This document shows, one piece after another, positions 7,778 through 7,879 of a DNA stretch of 53,870 nucleotides. Location of the stretch: positions 1 to 53,870 of the forward strand of contig JANXEV010000004.1 in the NCBI GenBank assembly GCA_025057985.1, given 5' to 3'. Both the position numbers and the translations under genes were made by a program. The DNA comes from Candidatus Aenigmatarchaeota archaeon. GTDB taxonomy: Archaea; Aenigmatarchaeota; Aenigmatarchaeia; CG10238-14; SpSt-28. Under the pieces are notes generated by a model. That model ran no database searches, had not been told where the DNA came from, and saw only the letters and a program-made list of their open reading frames with translations. The first letter of the stretch is position 1; each line of letters opens with the position of its first letter.

Positions 7778-7879
7778 CTCCCGCATGAGTTAGAGCCCTA
7801 GCAGAGGAGCAAGATTTCATCGATCATCAAAGGATTAGATAATCTTCATCTAGGAATCAGAAGATACCCTAACTCATGT
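7778..7879 (-). ncRNA. 16S intron 2 (102 nt, after E. coli-equivalent 801), canonical BHB, box C/D-like multi-guide RNA
   Basis: CCCG/CGGG helix, bulges GTA and AGA, perfect 10-bp stem CATGAGTTAG/CTAACTCATG; splicing restores GATACCCCGGTAGTCC; internal CTGA, ATGAAGA, TTGA, ATGAAAT boxes. Confidence 0.92.

Follow-up and report, generated by a model that had tools for sequence, protein, structure and literature searches.

A helix-24 intron in an aenigmatarchaeal 16S rRNA gene with candidate C/D methylation guides for its own upstream exon

Introns in archaeal rRNA genes are usually treated as selfish elements or remnants. Might such an intron serve the rRNA that it interrupts? The question is raised by a stretch of 53,870 nucleotides (nt) from a Candidatus Aenigmatarchaeota archaeon (contig JANXEV010000004.1), called the window below, to which all positions refer unless another contig or locus is named. 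It belongs to a hot-spring genome of 554 kb in 37 contigs with an estimated completeness of 88.8% (G000), and it harbours a 16S rRNA gene on its minus strand. At gathering thresholds, the only Rfam match in the 16S region is that of the SSU_rRNA_archaea model (6874-8651). The actual 3' end of the gene lies further downstream, near 6728, the Rfam alignment of this end being misplaced because of two 3' inserts. Among roughly six insertions in the gene, that at 7879-7778 (minus strand) is a 102-nt bulge-helix-bulge (BHB) intron in helix 24, with segments antisense to the exon just upstream. We lean towards the view that this intron is a permuted C/D guide which methylates two uridines of that exon, with a third antisense segment as an accessory. 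We take these uridines, at 7893 and 7888, to be the equivalents of U788 and U793 in E. coli numbering.

Splice motif and antisense elements

The intron is real and its splice motif is canonical. Excision of 7879-7778 yields exactly the sequence of intron-less relatives at the junction, and the exon-intron borders form a bulge GTA, a central helix CCCG:CGGG of 4 base pairs (bp) and a bulge AGA, with both cuts after the second bulge base. This geometry, that is, two 3-nt bulges on opposite strands, a 4-bp CCCG/CGGG helix and an inner helix of 4-14 bp, is present in 19/19 distinct homologues. The inner helix has 13 bp (two of them G-U) in G000, and in the relatives it is made of several different sequence pairs, with paired substitutions. 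By eye, there are only about 2 bp in the outer exon-exon helix, so the motif is of a relaxed form. The splicing machinery is encoded in the genome, with two splicing-endonuclease homologues and RtcB; one of the former (a 408-amino-acid open frame; window 10883-11134, minus strand) is found about 2 kb from the 16S gene. The intron and the parts of its splice motif are as follows.

7778-7879, minus strand: BHB intron of 102 nt in helix 24, identified by the restored sequence of intron-less relatives and by splice-motif geometry
7882-7885, minus strand: 5'-exon strand CCCG of the central helix; CCCG/CGGG with bulge GTA (GTG in two) in 19/19 introns
G7881-T7880-A7879, minus strand: 3-nt bulge with the 5' splice site, after exon CCCG
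7780-7783, minus strand: CGGG, the intron's side of the central helix; all sequences of alignment A1 have CGGGA
A7779-G7778-A7777, minus strand: bulge with the 3' splice site, after CGGG
7866-7878, minus strand: 5' strand of the inner helix, CATGAGTTAGGGT; includes ATGAGTT and overlaps the first bases of element 1
7784-7796, minus strand: 3' strand of the inner helix, GCTCTAACTCATG; pairs with 7866-7878

Three further segments of the intron are antisense to the 5' exon, and two pairs of boxes resembling those of C/D small RNAs (sRNAs) are placed among them. Each pair could form a kink-loop (K-loop). In the order of the transcript, with the exon target first, the features are the following.

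7884-7910, minus strand: target region in the 5' exon (helix 24, 5' strand plus loop), to which elements 3, 2 and 1 are antisense
7861-7869, minus strand: element 1 (guide 1), GGGTATCTT, antisense to AGATACCC (7891-7884); its core GTATCTT is (near-)invariant in 19 introns
7857-7860, minus strand: D-type box CTGA of K-loop 1; GA is invariant (CTGA in 17/19 introns, CCGA in 1/19, ATGA in 1/19)
7850-7856, minus strand: variable loop TTCCTAG of K-loop 1; 4-9 nt across introns and unconserved in sequence (G057 on the ATGAAGA reading)
7843-7849, minus strand: C-type box ATGAAGA of K-loop 1; ATGAGGA, ATGATGA and ATGATTT in other introns
7831-7842, minus strand: element 2 (guide 2), TTATCTAATCCT, 12 nt between boxes, antisense to GGATTAGATA (7896-7887); also found in free C/D sRNAs
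7827-7830, minus strand: D-type box TTGA of K-loop 2; the same TTGA follows this guide in free sRNAs of G020, G009, G012, G015 and G018
7814-7826, minus strand: 6-nt loop TGATCG and C-type box ATGAAAT (box 7820-7814) of K-loop 2; the loop has 3-4 nt in relatives and only ATGA is conserved
7802-7813, minus strand: element 3, CTTGCTCCTCTG, antisense to TAGGGGAGCAA (7910-7900)
7794-7802, minus strand: GCTAGGGCT, complementary to the first 9 nt of the 3' exon, AGTCCTAGC (7777-7769); forms a helix in the minimum-energy fold of the precursor

The best ungapped pairing of element 1 comprises 8 bp with AGATACCC, and that of element 2 comprises 11 bp (one G-U) with GGGATTAGATA. Counting five nucleotides from the D-type box, as is the rule for C/D guides, leads to positions 7888 and 7893, respectively, and the sense base is T at both. 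Positions 7891-7887, five bases, belong to both targets. Element 3 pairs with TAGGGGAGCAA by nine Watson-Crick and two G-U pairs, as judged by eye. It is followed by CTAG and not by a D box, and it most likely provides an accessory pairing; segments related to it (TGCTCCCC) are present in G008, G006, G011 and G026.

The preliminary description of this locus, made from the sequence alone, had read the sense strand of 7879-7778 exactly as we do, and its pairings hold up: those of elements 1 and 2 with their targets at 7888 and 7893 were reproduced by the best ungapped pairing, and the 11-bp pairing of element 3, with its two G-U pairs and without a clear D box, by eye. Its grouping of these parts into three box-guide units does not stand. 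ATGAGTT, which it took as the first C box, is located inside the 13-bp inner helix and varies in the relatives as a helix strand does, and we rejected it as a box C. What remains are two box pairs, two guides each with a D-type box, and one boxless antisense segment.

This antisense content is above chance. We shuffled the intron 5000 times with its dinucleotides preserved and scored the shuffles on the 46 nt of exon upstream. An antisense run of at least 10 nt was found in 15/5000 shuffles, and none of the 5000 had at least 25 nt covered by runs of at least 7 nt, the observed cover being 25 nt. An 8-nt antisense run followed by one nucleotide and NTGA was present in any form in 12/5000 shuffles; the intron has two.

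Relatives of the candidate guides in introns, free sRNAs and tRNA genes

The intron family was detected in 21/118 genomes of the order, and in G026 in addition; relatives retrieved by pattern scans are Aenigmatarchaeota from hot springs and vents. There are 19 distinct intron sequences of 54-104 nt, distributed in three families, and one further copy is cut by a contig end. As the genomes are related, counts across them are not independent. Mean column identity in alignment A1 of the 19 introns is 59%, and the (near-)invariant columns are GTATCTT of the element 1 core, CTGA, the A-TGA-G of ATGAAGA and the CGGGA of the splice motif. Conservation is highest from element 1 through CTGA and the loop to ATGAAGA, a pattern that speaks for selection on the grammar of guide and boxes.

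Seven introns (G000, G008, identical to that of G007, G006, G011, G013, G057 and G103) have the full two-guide layout, namely element 1, box, loop, box, a 12-nt element 2, box, a loop of 3-6 nt, box and a third segment. Element 2 occupies exactly 12 nt between its boxes in the six of them that were parsed by script, and in G057 by eye; the box-guide spacing of element 2, a feature that the preliminary description had wished to see compared in related introns, is conserved in these seven. The remaining introns have element 1 and its box pair only, with G060 carrying an element-2-like guide before CTGA instead.

Guide 2 also exists outside of introns. The pattern TGANGANNATCTAATCC, which combines a C-type box with element 2, was found exactly once in each of 15/118 genomes of the order. 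This intron accounts for eight of the copies. The other seven belong to free-standing C/D sRNAs of canonical layout (box C, 12 nt, box D', loop, box C', 12 nt, box D), and the two forms are never found together in one genome. Three free-form genomes (G009, G012 and G015) have no intron at the 16S site, G026 has a short intron without element 2, and in G018, G020 and G029 the 16S site is not assembled. This distribution suggests that the intron and free copies of guide 2 replace one another; because the genomes are related, only few independent events lie behind the pattern. The module made of box, 12 nt, box, loop and box is 74-88% identical between intron and free forms when pairs of equal length are compared, including the unusual TTGA box and an AAA loop. 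Furthermore, AATCC and the D-type box are always separated by a single base in both forms, so that the fifth-nucleotide target never moves. Such a fixed guide-box register is what would be expected of a methylation guide, as opposed to a mere antisense segment. Of note, in three loci (L084-L086 of G020, G026 and G029), the free guide-2 sRNA is followed by AAA and a second sRNA to form a tandem pair, and the joint of this pair, D box, AAA, C box, resembles the second K-loop of the intron.

As for element 1, its build recurs in the same genome in four tRNA introns that share the arrangement guide, CTGA, 3 nt, RTGAAGA. A motif scan located them in the following tRNA genes.

C33:9341-9438, minus strand: tRNA gene with intron module
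C22:26765-26876, minus strand: tRNA gene with intron module
C11:75774-75908, plus strand: tRNA gene with intron module
C35:15940-16060, plus strand: tRNA gene with intron module

The hosts include Trp-CCA and Ser-TGA, as called by ARAGORN, and two others with anticodons TAA and TTT as read by eye, for which ARAGORN gave Gln and Phe and placed the introns differently. The 3' splice site that ARAGORN calls in the Trp and Ser genes falls within the C-type box. The fifth-nucleotide rule leads to the first anticodon base, position 34, in 4/4 of these introns, and the genome's own tRNA-Trp module is aimed at C34. Archaeal C/D guides are described as acting on position 34, with Cm34 guided by the tRNA-Trp intron (PMC7994747). 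Outside of tRNA-Trp, the tRNA hosts of these modules may be unreported ones. A single K-loop module set in a splice-motif intron and acting on the upstream exon is, to judge from these parallels, a working design in this genome.

More generally, the 554-kb genome has 13 occurrences of the strict motif CTGA-N3-9-RTGA[ATG]GA: in two 16S introns, four tRNA introns, one canonical sRNA and six places elsewhere. Strict and scored genome-wide grammar scans found a single textbook free C/D sRNA (C19:149-199, minus strand), whose targets are possibly in the unassembled 23S rRNA; the intron modules thus fail the textbook grammar. The 23S rRNA gene was not found in the assembly, which places 23S targets and 23S introns outside the analysis. 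A genome-wide search for antisense 9-mers with boxes against the unspliced 16S RNA gave 16 matches, mostly AT-rich noise, among which element 2 is the sole clear one.

The suggestion of a methylation guide in the preliminary description is therefore partly upheld: element 2 is strongly supported as a guide by its occurrence in the same register in free C/D sRNAs of sister genera, and element 1 is conserved and built like the tRNA modules, while the three-unit layout has to be given up. Its alternative, an origin by inverted duplication of exon sequence, is disfavoured by the five-base overlap of the element 1 and 2 targets and by the free sRNA counterparts of element 2. The folding chaperone that it offered beside a guide keeps a lower probability and is taken up below.

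Possible mechanism and rival explanations

How might such a guide operate? The tRNA splicing endonuclease would excise the intron and RtcB would close the circle. The K-loops CTGA-7 nt-ATGAAGA and TTGA-6 nt-ATGAAAT would be bound by L7Ae, and Nop5 and fibrillarin would be recruited; genes for all three proteins are present in the genome. A second L7Ae-family match, with one in-frame TGA, is found at window 39102-39353 (minus strand). Guide 2, between the two K-loops, would pair with the 790-loop of helix 24 and place the T at 7893 five nucleotides from the D-type box. Element 3 could pair simultaneously with the adjoining 7910-7900, adding binding strength beside guide 2. Guide 1, directly upstream of CTGA, would pair with an overlapping stretch and aim at the T at 7888. 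As the targets overlap by five bases, the two guides would have to act sequentially. Exon CCCG (7885-7882) is needed both by guide 1 and by the splice motif, and the minimum-energy fold of the precursor has the exon paired with the intron instead of the motif, so that a guide acting in cis would modify its target before the intron is cut out. The other possibility is action in trans by the circle after excision. The order of boxes fits a box C/D layout only as a permuted or circular form. Going round the circle, one would meet box C with guide 2 and box D', a loop, box C', the stretch of element 3, hairpin and guide 1, then box D and another loop before box C is reached again. This would be the order of an ordinary sRNA, except that one guide region has a hairpin in it. 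The sequence anatomy, its conservation, the likeness to free sRNAs and the protein genes are the observed basis on which we propose the binding of proteins, the methylation with its timing, and the closure into a circle. As for RNA sequencing runs, they contained only 0.10-0.15 of the sampled words, versus 0.20-0.68 in hot-spring DNA metagenomes; the words present in the RNA runs are probably conserved exon words of other organisms.

Several observations weigh against a guide function. No curated C/D family matches the intron, the best Rfam match reaching 14.4 bits with an E of 6.7 (values up to 10 being noise) versus a gathering score of 70; the coverage of archaeal sRNA families by Rfam is sparse. 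The intron has no terminal C/D K-turn, with the splice helix in the place of a C box upstream of guide 1 and no box D at the 3' end, and in G000, as in other introns, the extended inner helix takes up the first bases of guide 1. The second K-loop is weak. In G000 it has TTGA as its D-type box, its only constant parts across introns are TGA and ATGA, and D position 1 pairs with C position 6 in 3/6 parsed introns, as well as in G057 by eye. A free-standing guide 1 sRNA gave no exact match in the 118 genomes, and the nine matches with one mismatch are one intron copy and other guides. With a loose guide 1 pattern, the reversed-pattern control also had many matches, and among the loci read, guide 1 was found only in intron copies, the rest being without sRNA context. 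Most family-f2 introns have no element 2, and the exact pattern found no free copy of guide 2 in their genomes, so the U788 guide is not universal. Finally, a further intron splits the guide 1 target in the primary transcript of G103, G107, G064 and G039; strictly co-transcriptional action in cis is therefore not general. In G103, G107 and G064 (L054, L056 and L058), there is an extra mini-intron within the 790 loop itself, upstream of the intron studied here.

Part of this evidence would suit an antisense clamp or timer that acts without methylation. According to this explanation, the intron, perhaps with L7Ae on its K-loops, pairs with both exons and holds helix 24 open, through elements 3, 2 and 1 with the 5' exon and through GCTAGGGCT, a copy of the 5' basal strand of helix 24, with the 3' exon. 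It would thereby free exon CCCG for the splice motif, or delay splicing and folding to a later assembly step, as a chaperone similar to a U3-type small nucleolar RNA (snoRNA). Consistent with such a role, the minimum-energy fold of the precursor replaces the splice motif by exon-intron pairing, and 12/19 introns have at least 8 bp of complementarity to the start of the 3' exon, the latter being also a point against a guide. The overlap of the guide 1 target with the exon strand of the central splice helix (CCCG, 7885-7882) can be understood in the same manner, as can the lack of a D box after element 3 and of a free counterpart for guide 1. Nevertheless, a clamp has no need for a register between guide and D-type box that is fixed as in free canonical sRNAs, nor does it account for the complementary distribution of the intron and free copies of guide 2, or for four tRNA-intron modules of like build that obey the fifth-nucleotide rule. 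We therefore regard a clamp without methylation as unlikely.

It is rather improbable, in our opinion, that the intron is a functionless relic, i.e. a selfish mini-intron, perhaps a decayed homing-endonuclease intron, that recombined with a tandem sRNA or with exon sequence. The idea draws on G039, which has at the same 16S site a 638-nt intron (L016:1578-2215, minus strand) with the same CGGGA splice strand and an open frame with two LAGLIDADG-like motifs, identified by eye from the translation rather than by comparison with Pfam. The degenerate look of K-loop 2 and element 3, and the many relatives that live without this intron, also fit. However, guide 1, CTGA and ATGAAGA have remained (near-)invariant over three families while loops and stems changed, box pairing is kept by compensatory changes, and genomes with guide 2 in the intron have no second, free copy. 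The 16S gene of G039 also has two more mini-inserts within helix 24. Least probable of all, and very much so, is an inverted duplication of the flanking exon that left plain hairpins with chance 'boxes' and no K-loops, despite three segments in the order of the exon's reverse complement and a Watson-Crick stem ATCTTC/GAAGAT of 5-6 bp that could, by eye, form in place of K-loop 1. That alternative hairpin is itself a point against our reading, but the K-loop register is favoured by comparison of the introns. D-box position 1 of K-loop 1 pairs with C-box position 6 in 19/19 introns (18 C-G and one compensatory A-T in G026), and position 2 faces C-box position 5 as T-A, T-G, C-G or T-T. At the level of sequence, K-loop 1 (CTGA/ATGAAGA) thus has the invariant GA and compensated adjoining pairs of a C/D box pairing. 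In G026, the hairpin register is mostly broken, as seen by eye, and the K-loop register is intact. Moreover, a single duplication would not be expected to give overlapping targets, box spacing of exactly 12 nt across the two-guide introns or a match of element 2 and its boxes with free sRNAs.

Other modules in this genome and known systems

If the helix-24 intron is indeed a guide, it might not be the only one of its kind. At least three of the roughly six 16S insertions (in helix 24, the helix-43 loop and helix 45) and four tRNA introns harbour K-loop modules. It is tempting to speculate, as a possibility to which we give somewhat less than even credence, that much of the C/D guide repertoire of this lineage has moved into splice-motif introns of target RNAs, the rRNA mini-introns being domesticated guide cassettes rather than selfish remnants. 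Such cassettes would act on their own transcript and couple ribose methylation with the order in which introns are removed. The one in helix 24 would descend from a piece of a tandem sRNA locus, captured possibly via a circular sRNA bound at its target.

The insert in the helix-43 loop (about 7118-7027, minus strand) reads ATGATTT, 12 nt (ACATGCACCACT), TCGA, 8 nt, ATGAGGA and 12 nt within a 9-bp stem, with boxes at 7099-7093, 7080-7077 and 7068-7062. Ten bases of its first guide are perfectly antisense to GTGGTGCATG (7534-7525), about 440 nt upstream in the gene, and layout and guide recur in G008, G007 and G006 and, diverged, in G037. The helix-45 insert (about 6842-6752, minus strand), again within a 9-bp stem, reads ATGAAAA, 12 nt, CTGA, TCA, GTGATGA, 12 nt and TTAA, with boxes at 6821-6815, 6802-6799 and 6795-6789, a guide at 6788-6777 and its target at 6736-6728. 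This guide, the second of the two 12-mers, is complementary to the 16S 3' terminus, the anti-Shine-Dalgarno region, with a perfect match of 11 nt in G008, G007 and G006 by eye. As the last box, TTAA, is without GA, the insert may mask this region rather than methylate it. Further inserts on the minus strand of the 16S gene are at 8024-7995, at about 7479-7383 (near helices 35-37) and at about 6915-6855 (just before helix 45). The first of these is a helix-23 hairpin, and its 3' part resembles a guide from one of the free sRNAs in family f3. Elsewhere in the window, Rfam identifies an archaeal signal recognition particle (SRP) RNA at 48773-49046 (plus strand) and a 101-nt tRNA match at 15865-15965 (plus strand), probably with an intron inside. 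Shortly before the SRP RNA, at 48018-48148 (plus strand), ARAGORN reports an unusual 'tRNA-Phe(aaa)' whose intron has 47 nt.

A guide in the helix-24 intron would provide such 16S introns with a function and would connect, within a single transcript, how a functionally central rRNA loop is modified, folded and spliced. It would also mean that single or permuted K-loop modules can replace the textbook C/D layout. Standard sRNA finders miss such modules: the strict scan found one sRNA, and seven more modules are in introns of the genome. It would offer a concrete route for how guide RNAs came to live in introns, and a displaced repertoire would be a prokaryotic parallel to the intron-encoded snoRNAs of eukaryotes. 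In the open-access literature, supplements excluded, we found no report of a C/D guide in an rRNA intron; archaeal C/D guides in introns are reported for tRNAs only, and a guide in an rRNA intron is apparently new.

Among known systems, introns of the same kind and in the same helix 24 region are found in the 16S genes of Thermoproteales, whose BHB intron loci include 781 and 803 and are occupied by mini-introns or by introns with LAGLIDADG genes (PMC4496867). That article classes the introns as endonuclease-coding, hairpin or remnant, and the words sRNA, snoRNA and methylation are absent from its text. Eukaryotic intron-encoded box C/D snoRNAs are likewise guides released from introns, and yeast helix 24 is itself modified, with psi999 and Cm1007 (PMC2794176). 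In contrast to the present case, the hosts of eukaryotic snoRNAs are introns of mRNA or non-coding RNA rather than of rRNA, and their processing involves the spliceosome and exonucleases. Any correspondence of psi999 and Cm1007 with the positions discussed here is presumptive.

Further counterparts are archaeal C/D guides. The C/D guide in the pre-tRNA-Trp intron of Haloferax volcanii, also proposed for a tRNA-Met intron of Nanoarchaeum equitans, is a BHB intron with targets in its own host exons, in which guide pairing and splice motif are alternative folds, as in the helix-24 intron, and the excised tRNA-Trp intron can act in trans (PMC7994747, PMC3491384). Unlike it, the intron described here has a 16S host, no terminal K-turn, two permuted K-loops, a hairpin that interrupts one guide region and a third antisense segment. 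With the free sRNAs that contain the guide NTATCTAATCCN (G009, G012, G015, G018, G020, G026 and G029), it shares the 12-nt guide, the one-base spacer and the box variants ATGAAGA or ATGAGGA and TTGA. These sRNAs differ in having an outer box C (ATGATGA or GTGATGA) and box D (CTGA) and in being intergenic, whereas the intron pairs the box before guide 2 with an upstream CTGA, the one that carries guide 1. Finally, sRNA24 and sRNA26 of Nanoarchaeum equitans and the circular sRNAs of Pyrococcus furiosus also have a box order that is correct only as a circle, and circular forms of such permuted or circular C/D sRNAs have been detected (PMC3491384, PMC7994747). Those are free genes whose route of circularisation is unclear; here, the circle would come from intron excision.

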